Below are positions 34,796-56,631 of a stretch of 64,000 nt of DNA, one piece after another. Under the pieces are notes generated by a model. The model made no database searches. It saw only the letters and a program-made list of their open reading frames with translations, and had not been told where the DNA came from. The number at the start of each line of letters is the position of its first letter. The stretch's first letter is position 1. The stretch lies in IMG/VR virus record IMGVR_UViG_3300045988_171124. One strand, written 5' to 3'. The DNA comes from a virus. Position numbers and translations under genes: made by a program.

Positions 34796-34810
34796 AGTGA
34801 GGTGATAAAG

Positions 34811-35833
34811 ATGACAGGTAGAATGGAGATAGAAGTCAAATATACAAACAATATAGATCGGCTCCTAAAAAATGAGCCAGAATATATGGATCTGTTTAAT
34901 GTGTTTATGATCGCAGATGATAAAACGGTAAAGACAAGATTAAACTACATTAACAATGTAGTAAGGTTTATACATTATCTAAAAGATTCTGGATATCCAA
35001 CGGAAACTATAGATGATATTGGAAAATTAAATGTAGAAACTATAAGAAAATATATTGTAGACGATGATAATCGTGTAATTATAGATAATGGAAGAATTTC
35101 TGATTCTTATAAGTACATTAGATATTTTTCTTTAAATTGCTTTTTTAAGTTTTTGGAAGATGGGGATCATATTAATAAAAATCCAATGAGAAAAATTAAA
35201 ACTCCAAGCAATAAAAGAATGAAGAAAAAAGTATATTTGGATGTTAATGAAGTAAGGGAAATTGAGAAAAATGTGTCTTCTGGAAATACTAAAAGAAGCA
35301 AATCATATCTTTCTCAGTGGCATGAGAGAGATGAGGCTATAATTAATCTTGGATTCCATAAGGCACTACGAGTTTCTGCGATAATCTCAATTAATCTTGA
35401 AGATATTAACTGGGAAGGTAAATCTTTAAGTGTTATTGAAAAAGGAAATGACCCACGGCATATTCATCTCAGTGACGGTACAATCAAAATACTTCAGTGT
35501 TGGGTCCAGAAGCGAAATGAATATACTAAAGTAAATGGAGTGGAAAGTCCTGCATTATTTATTTCAAACAAATCTGGCAGAATTTCACAAAAAACAGTTG
35601 GAAGGATATTAAGATCATATGCCGGTGACATCAATAAAGAAAAAAGAATTGTACCACATACAATGCGAAGCTCTACCGGCACGAATTATTATTTAAAAAC
35701 CGGAAATGCTAGAGCTGTGCAACAGTTACTTGGACAAAAGAGTTTAGCAGCAACACAGAAATATTTGGATGATACAGTTCAGCAGAGAAGAGAAATTACT
35801 GATGCAGTAGAAGATTTATATGGGGATGATTAA
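34811..35833 (+). CDS. tyrosine recombinase / phage integrase family
   Basis: Track ORF trimmed to ATG 34811. N-terminal SAM-like domain plus catalytic region: ALRVSAI (Arg), HTMRSSTGT (His-x-x-Arg), LLGQKSLAATQKYLD (Gln where His/Trp is usual, then the catalytic Tyr). Confidence 0.85.
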   Translation: MTGRMEIEVKYTNNIDRLLKNEPEYMDLFNVFMIADDKTVKTRLNYINNVVRFIHYLKDSGYPTETIDDIGKLNVETIRKYIVDDDNRVIIDNGRISDSYKYIRYFSLNCFFKFLEDGDHINKNPMRKIKTPSNKRMKKKVYLDVNEVREIEKNVSSGNTKRSKSYLSQWHERDEAIINLGFHKALRVSAIISINLEDINWEGKSLSVIEKGNDPRHIHLSDGTIKILQCWVQKRNEYTKVNGVESPALFISNKSGRISQKTVGRILRSYAGDINKEKRIVPHTMRSSTGTNYYLKTGNARAVQQLLGQKSLAATQKYLDDTVQQRREITDAVEDLYGDD

Positions 35834-49000: not shown

Positions 49001-49304
49001 GTTGTTTATTACAAAATATAAATTAATAGGTATACAAAACGATAGGATTACAAAAGAGTATATCATTGATGTTTTGTAACCATGTAAATTAAGAGGTATA
49101 CAAAACGGTCATACTGAAGAAGTAAATGAAAAATATGTTTTGTAACCATGTAAATTAAGAGGTATACAAAACCAGAGAGTTACCATCCTTTGCTTGTCCC
49201 TTGTTTTGTAACCATGTAAATTAAGAGGTATACAAAACACTGAGCTGGACAGGGCAGAACAGGAGCGAGTTTTGTAACCATGTAAATTAAGAGGTATACA
49301 AAAC
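49001..49304 (+). CRISPR. mini-CRISPR array: 4 identical 36-nt repeats plus 1 degenerate repeat, 4 spacers of 30 nt
   Basis: GTTTTGTAACCATGTAAATTAAGAGGTATACAAAAC at 49071-49106, 49137-49172, 49203-49238 and 49269-49304. A degenerate 40-nt copy sits at 49001-49040 (last 22 nt match 21/22). Unique 30-nt spacers at 49041-49070, 49107-49136, 49173-49202 and 49239-49268. Confidence 0.9.
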
Positions 49305-49548
49305 CTCAAAGTATAGTTTTATACCTCTTATTTTAAGGCACTTCTATGAAATAGACTAAGAGAAATCTACGTTATAAAAAGATAATATGTTATGGTGTCG
49401 CTCTAGCTGTAATTATATCGTTTGTACCTAAACATACACTGTGCCGAACATGATTGGTGTAAGTGATACAAACATGTAACTTTTTATAACATTGTCGAAG
49501 AGCATGACCAATTTTAAATTGAGATTATATTATAAAGGAAATAAAAAT
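49305..49548 (+). ncRNA. candidate anti-repeat plus omega-RNA/tracrRNA-like scaffold between array and iscB
   Basis: GTTTTATACCTCTTA (49316-49330) is complementary to the 3' part of the repeat (TAAGAGGTATACAAAAC). The remaining ~220 nt are ORF-free, contain long-range complementarity (GTTTGTA ... TACAAAC), and end at the iscB start. Boundaries and strand are inferred, not demonstrated. Confidence 0.5.
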
Positions 49549-51288
49549 ATGAATTATATGGATTTTGTATTAATTGTGGATAAAAATAATAAACCATGCA
49601 TACCAATAAAAAATGGTAAAGCAGGTTATTTATTAAGAGAACATAAAGCAGAAATTATAAATCACGAGCCATTAGTTATCAAAAGAACTGATGATTATAA
49701 TTCGGATTTAGAAAATAGAGATATATTTGAATTAAAAGTAGATAGTGGATATTTAAATATCGGATTTTCCGTAAGCGATAATGAGCATGAATATATTGCA
49801 GGTCAAGTTGAAATGCTAAACGGAATGAGTAATAGATTGTTAGAAAGAAAATCTATGCGTAGTTCCAGAAGAAATCGTTTACGTTATAGAAAAAATAAGA
49901 ACATTGATTATAAAACAGTACATAATCCTACATATAAAAATGGAAATGAAGATGGATGGTTTGCACCGTCTATTGTACATAAAATGGAAACGCATATCAG
50001 AATCATTGAGCAATTAAAACAATGGGTCCCAATCGATAAAGTTATTGTAGAGGTGGCAAATTTTGACATTGCTGCAATGGATGCATATTTAAAGGACGGA
50101 ACTATTTTAAATGGAAAAGATTATCAAAATGGTGAAATGAAAGGATATGAGAATGTTGTATCTTATGTAAGAGCCAGAGATAATTATTCTTGTTACTTTT
50201 GCAATAAGAAAAAGAAAAAAGATGGTACACTAAAAGAGAAACCAAAAAGAATAGAAGTACACCATAAAATTCCAAGATCCTGGGGAGGTACTAATAATCC
50301 AGGAAATTTAATTTGCGTATGTCAAGGATGTCATCAGAAAATACATTCGAATAATAATAACAACAAATATTTTAAAGAATTATTAGAACAAGCTTTACAA
50401 GAAAATACATTTAAAGATTCTACATATATGAATATTGTTAGATGGGAATTATTAAACAGACTTACTGAAAAATATCCAGAGTTTGATATTGAAGCTGAAT
50501 ATGGTTATAACACAAAAATTAATAGAAAAGAAGCAGGTTTGAGAAAATTCCATTATAATGATGCAGTTTGTATAAAAGAATTTAAGAATACAACTTTATC
50601 TAAAAAAGTATTTATTGTCGAACAAAAGCGTTGTAATGATAGAAAAATGGAAAATTTTGCAGATGCTAAATATATAGATTCAAGAGATGGTAAAAAGAAA
50701 AGTGGAAATGATTTAAAAGTAATTAGGCATAGTACTAAATCAAAACGTTCTACAAACAAAGAACATATTGATAATGAAAGAGTCTTTAGAAAAGAGAAAG
50801 TATCTAAAGGTAAAATACAATTTGAGTGTCATTCATATTGCGTAAAACCAGGAGATTTAATATACATAAAAGAAGGTAAACATAAAGGGAAAATTGCAGA
50901 AGTTTCTACAATACAGATTGTAGGCGGAAAAATTCCTAATCCGATAATTGATATTAATGAGATAAATAATAAAAAAATTGATTTCAACAGAGAGTTGAAA
51001 AAAAGAAAAACAATTTCTAATATGACTGATTATCAAAAGAGTTTTGCAAAATATCAAATTAGATTTACATATAAAGAATCTGATGCAGATGGACCATCTA
51101 TAACGCTTACGCAAAAAGAATATGAAAAGCTTAAAGAAAATAAATCAGATAGAGTAAAAATTATTCGTACCAGACGTGGATTAGTTTGGAGAGAGTACGA
51201 CAGACTTACATATGAAGCTGAAAATATGGATCAGGAAGAAAAGAAGTTAGAAGTAAAAAATAAGAAACAAGAATTAAAAGCTGCATAA
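49549..51288 (+). CDS. iscB: IscB-type RNA-guided nuclease (PLMP-RuvC-bridge helix-HNH-RuvC), CRISPR-associated
   Basis: Track ORF 49492..51288 trimmed to ATG 49549 after AAAGGA. PLMP-like N-terminus NKPCIPIKNGKAGYLLREHKAEII. RuvC-I ELKVDSGYLNIGFSV. Arg-rich helix RKSMRSSRRNRLRYRKNK. GWFAPSIVHK. RuvC-II VIVEVANFD. HNH CYFC...HHKIPRSWGGTNNPGNLICVCQGCHQKIH. RuvC-III HYNDAVCI. No REC-size insertion. About 580 aa. Confidence 0.8.
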   Translation: MNYMDFVLIVDKNNKPCIPIKNGKAGYLLREHKAEIINHEPLVIKRTDDYNSDLENRDIFELKVDSGYLNIGFSVSDNEHEYIAGQVEMLNGMSNRLLERKSMRSSRRNRLRYRKNKNIDYKTVHNPTYKNGNEDGWFAPSIVHKMETHIRIIEQLKQWVPIDKVIVEVANFDIAAMDAYLKDGTILNGKDYQNGEMKGYENVVSYVRARDNYSCYFCNKKKKKDGTLKEKPKRIEVHHKIPRSWGGTNNPGNLICVCQGCHQKIHSNNNNNKYFKELLEQALQENTFKDSTYMNIVRWELLNRLTEKYPEFDIEAEYGYNTKINRKEAGLRKFHYNDAVCIKEFKNTTLSKKVFIVEQKRCNDRKMENFADAKYIDSRDGKKKSGNDLKVIRHSTKSKRSTNKEHIDNERVFRKEKVSKGKIQFECHSYCVKPGDLIYIKEGKHKGKIAEVSTIQIVGGKIPNPIIDINEINNKKIDFNRELKKRKTISNMTDYQKSFAKYQIRFTYKESDADGPSITLTQKEYEKLKENKSDRVKIIRTRRGLVWREYDRLTYEAENMDQEEKKLEVKNKKQELKAA

Positions 51289-54608: not shown

Positions 54609-55511
54609 ATGGGATGGGGAGAATGGGATACAAATAGTTTTATAAGATATTCAACATCAAAGGGATTAGCGACAGATTCATTAGGGTTTGTTACTTCAAG
54701 TGTTTCTAATCAGGAAATGTTTAAGGCAAGATCTCTTGATCCAGTACTTGATCCAAACAATGTTATTAGAGAATGTTGCGATTCAGAAGATCATCCAAAT
54801 ACATTACCAGTTGTGATTGCACTTGATGTAACTGGATCTATGGGGCAAGCTGCAGTTGAGGTAGCAAAAAAACTTAATGGAATTATGACAAAACTTTATG
54901 AAAAAATTGCAGATGTTGAATTTATGATTATGGGTATTGGAGATTTATCATATGATTATAATCCAATTCAAGCATCTCAATTTGAATCAGATATAAGGAT
55001 TACAGAGCAACTTGATAAAATTTACTTTGAATTTGGCGGTGGTGGAAATGGATTTGAGTCATATAGTGCTGCATGGTATTTTGGAACTCATCACACTAAA
55101 CTTGATTGCTGGAATCGTGGTAAACGAGGAATTATTATTACAATCGGTGACGAGAGATTGAATCCTTATCTTCCAATCCGAAGTAGATGTTCTGGTTTAA
55201 TTGCAACACTTGGAGATAATTTAGAAAAAGATGTGGAAACTCCAGAGCTATTTGAAGAAGCTTCTAAGAAATTCGACATTTATCATATTCATGTAAATCA
55301 TGGTAGTAACTATGACAAAGAAGGTATTGAAAAATCCTTTAAGTCTATTATTGAAGAAAATCATTTCAAAGAAGCGACTTTAGATAATATTGCAGAGACT
55401 ATTGTAAATATTATTGTTGATGCAGCTGAGAACGATGTTAATACAATTATAACACCTGCGACAACACCTACTCAGGTAAGTACAAATGAGAATGGTGAAA
55501 TTGTTTGGTAA
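54609..55511 (+). CDS. von Willebrand factor A (vWA) domain protein
   Basis: 300 aa; GAGGAGGA SD. MIDAS-like VVIALDVTGSMG followed by an alternating beta/alpha pattern (IIITIGDERL). Confidence 0.6.
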   Translation: MGWGEWDTNSFIRYSTSKGLATDSLGFVTSSVSNQEMFKARSLDPVLDPNNVIRECCDSEDHPNTLPVVIALDVTGSMGQAAVEVAKKLNGIMTKLYEKIADVEFMIMGIGDLSYDYNPIQASQFESDIRITEQLDKIYFEFGGGGNGFESYSAAWYFGTHHTKLDCWNRGKRGIIITIGDERLNPYLPIRSRCSGLIATLGDNLEKDVETPELFEEASKKFDIYHIHVNHGSNYDKEGIEKSFKSIIEENHFKEATLDNIAETIVNIIVDAAENDVNTIITPATTPTQVSTNENGEIVW

Positions 55512-55533: not shown

Positions 55534-56631
55534 ATGAAAGACATTAAGATTGTGGCTGGAGCAAACTGGGGAGACGAAGGAAAAGGACTAATGACTGATT
55601 ACTTTTCACAGAAACCTAATAGTATTGTAGTATGTTCTAATGGTGGAAGTCAAAGAGGACATACTGTGGTAACACCGGACGGAATCAGACATGTCTTTCA
55701 TCATTTTGGTTCTGGAACTTTTAATGGTGCTGCTACATATTTACCAAAAGAATTTATTGTAAATCCACTTATTTTTGCTCAAGAATATAAAGAACTGATA
55801 AACAATAAGGTTGTTCCTAATATTTACGTTCATAATGATTGTATGGTTTCGACTCCGTATGATATGATGGCAAACCAGGTCATCGAAGAGAGTCGTGGAA
55901 AACAAAAGCATGGCAGTTGTGGATTTGGAATTTTTGAAACCATTAAGAGATATAAAAATGGTATAACCGATTTTGATAAAATAAAGAACTATTATCTTGA
56001 AAAATTTGAACGAGATAAAATTCTACTATCGGACGATTGGAAAAGAATATTTAATGATCCAGGAATAAATGATCATTTTATAGAAGATTTGGATTTTATG
56101 AATGAACACATTAAATCAATTAGAGATGAAAGCTTTCTAAATATGTTTGATCATATTATTTTTGAAGCCGCTCAAGGATTACTACTCGATCAGAATAATC
56201 TAAAATATTTCCCATATCTTACGCCATCTAATACAGGTCTGAAAAATCCCAAAGAAATTATTGAAAGAATTGATTGGTATGATGAATTGAATATAGAAGT
56301 ATGTTATGTGACACGTACATATTTAACTAGGCATGGTGCCGGTCCGTTTCCAACTGAGTGCGATAAAGAAGAAATTAATTCTGAAATGCATGATAGGACG
56401 AATGTACCTAACCCACATCAGGATACTTTACGTTACGGAAAGTTAGATTTAAATGAGTTATATCAAAGAGTGATGGAAGATGTTGGAAATTATAAATGTA
56501 AGAAATCTATTGCCATTACACACTGTAATGAATTTAGAATGGATGAATATAAGTTTGAGAAGTTATTTTTAGGATGGAATATTTATAAATCAGATGGTGA
56601 AACACATAATAGCATAAAGGAGACAAAATAA
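55534..56631 (+). CDS. short adenylosuccinate synthetase (PurA/PurZ)-family protein
   Basis: 365 aa. GANWGDEGKG (P-loop), GGSQRGHT, HHFGSG, FEAAQGLLLD, FPYLTPSNT and RHGAGPFPTE are collinear with PurA motifs. GSCGFGI replaces TTGRGIG, and no TTGR-x-RR motif is present. Confidence 0.7.
   Translation: MKDIKIVAGANWGDEGKGLMTDYFSQKPNSIVVCSNGGSQRGHTVVTPDGIRHVFHHFGSGTFNGAATYLPKEFIVNPLIFAQEYKELINNKVVPNIYVHNDCMVSTPYDMMANQVIEESRGKQKHGSCGFGIFETIKRYKNGITDFDKIKNYYLEKFERDKILLSDDWKRIFNDPGINDHFIEDLDFMNEHIKSIRDESFLNMFDHIIFEAAQGLLLDQNNLKYFPYLTPSNTGLKNPKEIIERIDWYDELNIEVCYVTRTYLTRHGAGPFPTECDKEEINSEMHDRTNVPNPHQDTLRYGKLDLNELYQRVMEDVGNYKCKKSIAITHCNEFRMDEYKFEKLFLGWNIYKSDGETHNSIKETK

Follow-up and report, generated by a model that had tools for sequence, protein, structure and literature searches.

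The stretch of viral DNA analysed here, referred to as the window, comprises 64,000 nucleotides (nt) of IMG/VR virus record IMGVR_UViG_3300045988_171124 and carries, on its + strand, a CRISPR mini-array, a structured RNA interval and a gene for an IscB protein, in this order and immediately adjoining one another. Repeat finding and array parsing delineate the mini-array at 49005-49304, in which five 36-nt repeats alternate with four 30-nt spacers at a period of 66. It is followed by 244 nt (49305-49548), across which the sole open reading frame (ORF) is a TTG-extended reading of iscB, and then by iscB itself, whose ATG stands at 49549. Taken as a whole, the locus is probably the guide-RNA gene of a phage-encoded, CRISPR-associated IscB, in which the terminal guide is fused in cis to its scaffold and new spacers are acquired at the scaffold-proximal end.

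The predicted product of iscB shows the architecture of this protein family, with a PLMP-like N-terminal segment, a split RuvC domain, a bridge helix and an HNH domain, followed at the C-terminus by a region that resembles a beta-barrel, and it has a KPCIP motif at residues 15-19. Pfam assigns residues 7-195 to PF14239 RRXRR (E 7e-33) and residues 215-267 to HNH (2e-7), and the closest PDB entries are the IscBs HfmIscB (9k2z, 3e-25) and OgeuIscB (7xht, 1e-21), with YnpsCas9 at 3e-6. The catalytic residues of RuvC and HNH (D65, E168, H238, H239, H335 and D338) are invariant in 25 homologues. Judged from these matches, the ORF of 579 amino acids (aa) is an IscB without a recognition (REC) lobe and is nearer to IscB than to Cas9.

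Homologous loci were drawn from a scan of IMG/VR, from metagenomes and from exact look-ups, and their protein identities are graded (99, 85-87, 68-70 and 47-59%). The viral scan returned 34 loci, 27 of which encode IscBs that are 49-98% identical and lie on IMG/VR contigs of 6-217 kb; a 28th, L028, has 34% IscB identity and also possesses an array. The array adjoins iscB and shares its orientation, an arrangement conserved in the family: a period-66 array ends 231-291 nt upstream of iscB in 26 of the 27 loci, the other (L003) having a single repeat. A search of the genome collection gave three distant hits only, all without arrays, and no near-identical phage was found among GenBank phages.

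Pairing of the terminal repeat with a downstream anti-repeat

The initial annotation, made from the letters of the window alone, had proposed that the last repeat folds onto an adjacent anti-repeat, and the coordinates and pairs that it described are all present in the sequence. Beyond a gap of 11 nt (49305-49315), GTTTTATACCTCTTA (49316-49330) is complementary to repeat nt 20-36 through 10 base pairs (bp), a 2-nt bulge and 5 bp, and four extra pairs that TAAA of repeat nt 15-18 can form with TTTA at 49332-49335 extend the helix to 49335; an inverted-repeat search returns arms at 49283-49301 and 49317-49335 with 89% complementarity. The hairpin is seen in both the minimum free energy (MFE) structure and the centroid of a 322-nt context folded with ViennaRNA. 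The repeat pairs with the next 48 nt at -18.0 kcal/mol, as compared with -9.3 +/- 2.5 kcal/mol for dinucleotide shuffles, 9 of 2000 of which reach the observed value, as do 22 of 5288 other segments of the 64 kb. Taken by itself, the pairing of repeat and anti-repeat in the window is thus unusual and suggestive, yet not conclusive. All intact repeats are identical and pair equally with the anti-repeat.

About 15 related lineages, nearly all on viral contigs of 17-220 kb from gut and rumen samples, have different repeats, and in these the downstream anti-repeat changes in step. In an alignment-free RNAduplex matrix, cognate pairings average -20.1 kcal/mol and non-cognate ones -11.4 (standard deviation 3.7; permutation p<1e-5), the cognate pairing being the best of its column in 13 of 15 lineages. 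Folds computed lineage by lineage share one architecture, with compensatory pair types at 20 of the 36 repeat positions, such as position 23 (G-C 7, A-U 4, U-A 11) and position 30 (A-U 8, C-G 12). When the structure of the window is imposed on a plain MAFFT alignment, 81.7% of cells are paired, against 70.2% after shuffling, the covariation score is 0.340 against 0.153 (reached in 0 of 500 shuffles), and 9 of 13 upper-helix pairs change on both sides; sliding the register by one column leaves ~51% paired and a covariation score of at most 0.13. A covariance model built from this alignment detects a single full-score copy in each of 41 loci, besides five weak hits inside arrays, and in the alignment made with the model 87.8% of cells are paired, the covariation score rises to 0.458 and 10 of 13 upper-stem pairs are compensatory. 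RNAalifold, when run on the MAFFT alignment, fails to recover the helix of repeat and anti-repeat, whose register is displaced by loop indels, a problem that is met by the cognate/non-cognate matrix, the explicit structure and the covariance model. The four tests are independent and agree, and, on this comparative evidence, which is decisive, the repeat:anti-repeat pairing is real. Covariation across homologous loci had been set beforehand as a test that could refute the proposal, and the compensatory changes are clear.

In L054, L055, L056 and L067, an insert of 20-40 nt between the terminal repeat and the anti-repeat holds ATTACTC, which is complementary to repeat nt 7-13. As this motif stands 5' of the main anti-repeat, it is unable to nest with the upper stem; a pseudoknot, or a second fragment of the anti-repeat in permuted order, may be what it represents.

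That the hairpin is an intrinsic terminator or attenuator, ending the array transcript before the scaffold and iscB, had been put forward in the initial annotation as an alternative, since in the window a stable hairpin is succeeded by UUUU at 49331-49334. A terminator-like site called at this position lies on the - strand, and the + strand has no such call. Moreover, the stem is rich in A+U, the loop is long (11 nt), and the U-run overlaps the partners of repeat nt 15-18 and itself pairs with these nt, so that it lies within the stem; most homologues, L009, L011 and L026 among them, have no U-run after the stem. A terminator would also have no reason to follow the repeat as it changes among 15 lineages, and the conserved scaffold downstream would be useless without a guide, all of which makes this explanation highly improbable. 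The minus-strand hairpin itself runs from 49307 to 49291 (GAGGT..ACCTC then TTAATTT) and is built from the terminal repeat and the conserved CCTC, its GAGG part not being conserved in other lineages. As GAGG is not conserved, the idea that this element of the repeat pairs with the conserved CCUC was rejected.

Table 1. Features of the array, scaffold and iscB locus in the window
Feature	Position	Strand	Basis or remark
Repeats	49005-49040, 49071-49106, 49137-49172, 49203-49238, 49269-49304	+	
Spacers 1-4, 30 nt each	49041-49070, 49107-49136, 49173-49202, 49239-49268	+	
Degenerate distal repeat	49005-49040	+	9 mismatches, all in the 5' half
Terminal spacer, putative guide of a fused single-guide-like RNA; probably the newest	49239-49268	+	position 5' of the terminal repeat; spacer sharing
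Terminal repeat GTTTTGTAACCATGTAAATTAAGAGGTATACAAAAC, fifth copy	49269-49304	+	MFE folds, covariation; predicted 5' strand of the guide adaptor hairpin
CTCAAAG motif, directly 3' of the terminal repeat, in the hairpin loop	49305-49311	.	putative leader-anchoring sequence
Anti-repeat, 3' strand of the upper stem, partner of repeat nt 15-36	49316-49335	+	folds, compensatory changes
UAUGAAAU, partner of repeat nt 1-8 GUUUUGUA (49269-49276) and 3' strand of the lower stem	49345-49352	+	folding
Omega-RNA (HEARO) scaffold	49317-49508	+	Rfam RF02033, 56.4 bits (gathering score 83), E 2.5e-10, full model 1-211
Scaffold pseudoknot strands	49354-49358 and 49492-49496	+	
Scaffold central stem	49371-49381 with 49480-49490	+	internal hairpins also present
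Conserved terminal hairpin	~49509-49521	+	
iscB, 579 aa	49549-51288	+	Pfam, PDB relatives

Omega-RNA scaffold, lower stem and strand

The HEARO match in the interval begins at the anti-repeat, and its score of 56.4 bits lies below the gathering score of 83. The consensus that RNAalifold derives from 26 scaffold sequences has 35 pairs, of which 23 are compensatory, and, as far as conservation of structure tells, the interval 3' of the terminal repeat is an omega-RNA scaffold, a conserved structured RNA. The proposal that 49305-49548 represents such a scaffold up to the iscB ATG is thereby borne out by the HEARO match, the compensatory pairs and the IscB ORF.

Folding of the terminal repeat with the sequence downstream predicts two stems in 13 of 15 lineages, an upper one involving repeat nt 15-36, which had been described correctly, and a lower one involving repeat nt 1/2-7/8, which had been missed. 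In the window, the lower stem would join repeat nt 1-8 to a segment directly 5' of the pseudoknot strand (AU-AGAC), at the site where P1 of HEARO closes, and across lineages the pair at repeat position 6 alternates (AU 9, GC 10, GU 3). GUUUUA:UAAAAU forms the lower stem of the S. pyogenes single-guide RNA (sgRNA), which the omega-RNA lower stem mirrors here. With nt 1-8 and nt 15-36 both paired, the guide adaptor hairpin has the whole repeat as its 5' strand and is abutted by the spacer in the manner of an omega-RNA guide. The sgRNA topology suggested earlier fails as drawn, in that 14-19 unpaired nt would separate guide and duplex, and is restored once nt 1-8 are paired with 49345-49352 in the lower stem.

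In the Rfam alignment, the first bases of the anti-repeat, UUUUAUAC (49317-49324), pair with the lower-stem partner at 49344-49351, as the palindromic ends of the repeat permit. This suggests, at the level of a structural model, an alternative closed conformer, a guide-less state of the free scaffold, in lineages whose anti-repeat reaches GUUUU.

An inverted repeat may also act as DNA and not as an RNA duplex, either as a palindrome that aids a spacer integrase or as the relic of an IS200/IS605 end hairpin. The one described here is centred on the putative leader-anchoring motif, at the junction where acquisition takes place, and in true IS elements the guide adaptor region of the omega-RNA gene also serves as a transposon end (PMC9581776). 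Selection on DNA, however, is expected to be symmetric between strands, whereas the + strand RNA has 391 repeat:downstream pairs, 46 of them G-U, and the - strand 263 pairs with 13 G-U, that is, 49% more pairs and 3.5 times more G-U on the + strand; to judge from pair types, this asymmetry fits selection on a + strand RNA. In addition, the lower stem links the repeat to sequence abutting the pseudoknot strand, as P1 does in HEARO, and no transposase domain or TnpA occurs among the scanned neighbours, the 5' boundary of the scaffold being a CRISPR repeat and not a transposon end. A role as DNA in place of RNA is therefore very improbable, and a dual role is possible. Many known IscBs are likewise without TnpA (PMC9755519).

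Array polarity and the origin of spacers

Among 11 strains of the lineage of the window, the spacers that strains have in common all lie at the distal end, and those unique to a strain all lie at the scaffold-proximal end. Human-gut strains with identical IscB have arrays that read, from distal to proximal, a-b-h, a-b-c-d-e, a-b-c-f-g and a-f-g, and that of the window reads a'-X-Y-Z, its spacer 1 being common to seven other strains with 3 mismatches and its spacers 2-4 being unique to it. The same degenerate copy opens the array in every strain of this lineage, and the distal repeat at 49005-49040 is the old, leader-distal end of the array. Five more pairwise comparisons in other lineages agree on this polarity. 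Distal sharing and proximal uniqueness imply that spacers have been gained at the scaffold-proximal end, and recently, so that the newest spacer always comes to lie in the fused single-guide position. Scaffold-proximal spacer gain was not found in the accessible literature on such systems and is apparently new.

Directly after the terminal repeat, CTCAAA(T/G/A) is present in 17 of 27 distinct arrays, the others being one base off, and no motif of the CTCAAA type precedes the distal repeat, which is the degenerate one. The reverse complement of the junction, (A)(A/T)TTTGAG/GTTTT, equals the group-1 leader end ATTTGAG, with its GAG/GTTT junction, of type II-A arrays with 36-nt repeats (PMC5382924). 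A search of PLSDB plasmids for a host-type array gave no match to the family repeats.

Metagenome contigs L125, L126 and L127, which belong to the phage of the window, end inside or beside the array, consistent with strain-level heterogeneity of spacers that breaks assemblies. In the arrays of L025 and L027, adjacent spacers are near-duplicates, for example GATGTACCCGGCAGATGAAGTCCAGATGTT and GATGTACCCAGCAGATGAAGCAGAAATGTT, which suggests repeated acquisition against variants of one target.

The 84 distinct spacers have a mean G+C content of 40.6%, against 29-33% for the phage, and this excess marks the spacers as foreign. A spacer of L013 agrees at 27 of 30 positions with a gene of L012, a related phage, for a 68-aa helix-turn-helix (HTH)-like protein, and a spacer of L010 matches the same gene at 25 of 30. 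Most likely, the system serves conflict between phages. The HTH-like ORF of L012 (2524-2730) adjoins a Sir2-family ORF (2690-3478) about 1 kb upstream of the L012 array, and the targeted region is absent from the phages that carry those spacers. Comparison of 10 and then 73 spacers with INPHARED yielded nothing but one untrusted 25-nt match, to Bacteroides phage BU2-1 (E 0.08), and spacers 3 and 4 of the window have no exact match in IMG/VR, either as 30-mer or as 20-mers; with no such targets, a target-adjacent motif (TAM) is not derivable. Weak local matches, of spacer 'a' to iscB of the L004 clade (21/23) and of W2 (17/18), are not claimed.

Guide use in cis and in trans, and relation to known systems

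In the mechanism proposed, a + strand transcript would run through the mini-array into the omega-RNA scaffold, and in vivo its terminal repeat would fold onto a two-part anti-repeat, nt 15-36 with 49316-49335 and nt 1-8 with 49345-49352. The two stems would rebuild the guide adaptor hairpin, which is one piece in canonical omega-RNA, and the spacer at 49239-49268 would thereby be placed in the omega-RNA guide position, giving a natural single-guide RNA to be loaded by IscB. This RNA would probably be trimmed at its 5' end, and host RNase III would possibly cut it within the upper stem, a modelled helix of 15-22 bp that is a plausible substrate. New spacers enter at the scaffold-proximal end beside the inverted, type II-A-like motif CTCAAA, and for older spacer-repeat units the only route to a scaffold would be to pair with this anti-repeat in trans or over a long range.

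The scaffold might instead be a classical trans-activating CRISPR RNA (tracrRNA), a separate molecule with which every repeat of the precursor CRISPR RNA (pre-crRNA) pairs in trans before RNase III cuts, in which case the adjacency of the last repeat would be irrelevant. Type II systems operate in this way (PMC10734277), the identical intact repeats all pair equally with the anti-repeat, and in two loci, L001 and L028, the terminal repeat is respectively a mutated and a degenerate copy. Yet an intact terminal repeat stands 11-40 nt from the anti-repeat in 41 loci, favouring intramolecular pairing, and there is no conserved promoter, sigma-70-like or other, between repeat and scaffold, nor a conserved sigma-70-like one inside the repeats; furthermore, loci L003 and L042, with a single repeat and no spacers, retain the hairpin, and DelIscB, a characterised CRISPR-associated IscB, operates with one fused RNA (PMC12660989). 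A scaffold acting solely as a separate tracrRNA is accordingly unlikely. The trans and cis-fused modes are not exclusive and may both operate; we think that both exist and that the terminal spacer is favoured in the lineage of the window.

Several natural variants bear on guide use. L003 (terminal repeat 3723-3758) and L042 have an intact anti-repeat and scaffold behind their single repeat and represent a state like that of an omega-RNA, the guide position being taken by fixed sequence from upstream. L058 (1556-1785) lacks both the terminal repeat and a motif of the CTCAAA type, and a 30-nt spacer-like segment directly abuts GTTTTGGAATTAT..., the start of the anti-repeat, which resembles the start of the repeat; the sister locus L059 (705-798) is arranged normally. 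This looks like a deletion between repeat start and anti-repeat start, and L058 would be either a natural variant with the guide fused to the scaffold or an assembly artefact. In L028 (3382-3840), the anti-repeat ATACCTTATTTT matches the upstream repeats only (-15.8 kcal/mol, against -6.0 for the degenerate scaffold-proximal repeat) and no CTCAAA motif is found, which suggests an opposite array polarity and a tracrRNA-like use.

A number of observations weigh against a cis-fused terminal guide with scaffold-side acquisition. In the close relative L001, two substitutions in the terminal repeat weaken the cis hairpin, and in the distant lineage L028 the anti-repeat departs from the terminal repeat as described above, so that some lineages may rely mainly on pairing in trans or over a long range. 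As for the window, the whole 322-nt fold is no more stable than its shuffles (z = -1.34); the lower stem, with 3 G-U among its 8 bp, is weak; the full-length MFE structure pairs repeat nt 1-7 with the spacer; the Rfam model favours an intra-scaffold P1, 49317-49324 with 49344-49351; and the energy-based comparison of strands gives no significant difference (p = 0.15). No convincing + strand promoter was found upstream of the array, and expression would consequently depend on read-through from upstream + genes. Finally, no target was found for the window's own spacers.

CRISPR-associated IscB of the DelIscB type was reportedly described by Altae-Tran et al. in Science in 2021, as cited by Zhang in 2025. 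In the non-coding RNA (ncRNA) of DelIscB, a hairpin of direct repeat (DR) and anti-repeat precedes an omega scaffold; the system cleaves DNA and has been discussed as an intermediate between OMEGA systems and Cas9 (PMC12660989, Zhang 2025). It has also been recognized that CRISPR-associated IscBs arose several times (PMC10734277) and that the repeat:anti-repeat duplex of Cas9 corresponds to the guide adaptor hairpin of IscB (PMC9640706; PMC9581776). The earlier interpretation of the locus is supported, with the lower stem added, and its idea of a literal intermediate between a fixed omega-RNA and a crRNA:tracrRNA pair is not new, since the RNA of DelIscB has been published and is biochemically active (PMC12660989); the concept is already published for DelIscB, of whose kind the phage family is a further example.

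The two systems share an array placed before iscB and an ncRNA in the order spacer, direct repeat, anti-repeat and omega-like scaffold, and the DR/anti-repeat hairpin of DelIscB can be truncated like that of an sgRNA. Compared by description and not by sequence, they differ in that the phage protein has 579 aa and DelIscB 457 aa, that the phage family resides on gut and rumen viral contigs of 17-220 kb, and that it has type II-A-like repeats with a junction motif and gains spacers on the scaffold-proximal side. What may be new here is the phage setting, the type II-A-like repeat with its inverted leader motif, and the acquisition on the scaffold side. For the IscB of the window, RNA-guided cleavage is inferred. 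Aquatic IscB loci L029, L079, L098, L103 and L108, which are distant and were considered as possible relatives of DelIscB, were rejected for want of arrays.

Like canonical OMEGA IscB with its HEARO RNA (RF02033; OgeuIscB 7XHT, 7UTN), the system has RRXRR/PLMP, split RuvC and HNH and no REC lobe, along with a nexus, a pseudoknot, a central stem and a guide directly 5' of the guide adaptor hairpin. Unlike it, the system uses a CRISPR repeat as the 5' strand of this hairpin and, as guide, an exchangeable spacer and not the flank of a transposon end; no TnpA is seen nearby and the HEARO score is 56 against 83 bits.

A repeat of the L009 type is identical at 26 of 36 positions to the S. pyogenes repeat. 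More generally, the family resembles type II-A Cas9 systems in its 36-nt repeats, 30-nt spacers, repeat start GUUUU(A/G)(G) and lower stem GUUUUA:UAAAAU, which is followed by a nexus-like ...CUA..GUUAU, as well as in the leader end ATTTGAG/GTTT (PMC5382924). It differs from them in that the effector is an IscB without REC lobe, the scaffold spans ~230 nt, the last repeat is physically fused to the anti-repeat, and in the window the leader-end motif is inverted and on the scaffold side, with the scaffold gene in the leader's place. No cas1, cas2 or csn2 was found in the 64-kb window, the part of the ~216-kb genome that the cas search covered: of the ORFs that reach 250 aa in this stretch, the 10 other than iscB gave no Cas1 Pfam match, and Cas2-sized ORFs were scanned near the locus only. 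As in virus-borne mini-arrays and phage CRISPR-Cas systems, a short array lacks adaptation genes of its own and at least one spacer matches a related phage; unlike virus-borne mini-arrays, it has its own effector and a co-evolving anti-repeat, with no reliance on a host effector.

It is conceivable, although we advance it only tentatively and regard it as somewhat doubtful, that large gut phages have built a Cas9-like adaptive IscB system, apparently independently of Cas9, in which the omega-RNA gene serves as CRISPR leader and a presumably hijacked host type II-A Cas1-Cas2-Csn2 inserts the newest spacer into the cis-fused slot. The inverted leader-anchoring motif would then lie in the loop of the guide adaptor hairpin, and each acquisition would duplicate the terminal repeat. 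If this is true, the newest spacer gets priority loading without a separate tracrRNA. The findings suggest that phages can turn the adaptation machinery of the host against rival phages.

Evolutionary biology has yet to explain how a fixed omega-RNA gave way to the exchangeable crRNA:tracrRNA pair of Cas9, and DelIscB is the one transitional form that has been characterised. The phage family offers a data set of ~15 co-varying lineages, strains with identical nucleases that differ only in recently gained spacers, and natural variants with one repeat, a deleted terminal repeat or a degenerate one, by which cis versus trans guide use, the roles of the two stems and the coupling of acquisition to expression become directly testable. 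It also provides compact nucleases of 515-579 aa with a ready-made sgRNA design.

With regard to the genome that carries the locus, the window has 29-33% G+C, a strong GC skew and nearly all long ORFs on the + strand; it encodes an integrase and proteins matched in PHROG only, and 98%-identical copies are present on IMG/VR contigs of 88 and 217 kb. By these features, the window is phage-like and belongs to a large human-gut phage. The genes flanking iscB have no Pfam domains. A tyrosine integrase at 34802-35833 (+; Pfam Phage_integrase 2.6e-25), in a phage apparently of ~216 kb, suggests a temperate or integrative lifestyle. At 55534-56631 (+) lies a gene for a PurZ-like adenylosuccinate synthetase (phrog_1211 2e-70, Pfam Adenylsucc_synt 7.5e-39), whose neighbour at 54609-55511 encodes the phage-only protein phrog_2971, and the phage DNA, judged from this gene content, may contain 2-aminoadenine in place of adenine; if adenine is replaced, both restriction and RNA-guided targeting of the phage's own genome would be affected. 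Elsewhere in the family, a skipping-rope RNA (RF02924, 74.9 bits) is located just downstream of iscB in L009 (5758-5838), and the locus of L022 is surrounded by 13 tRNA genes.

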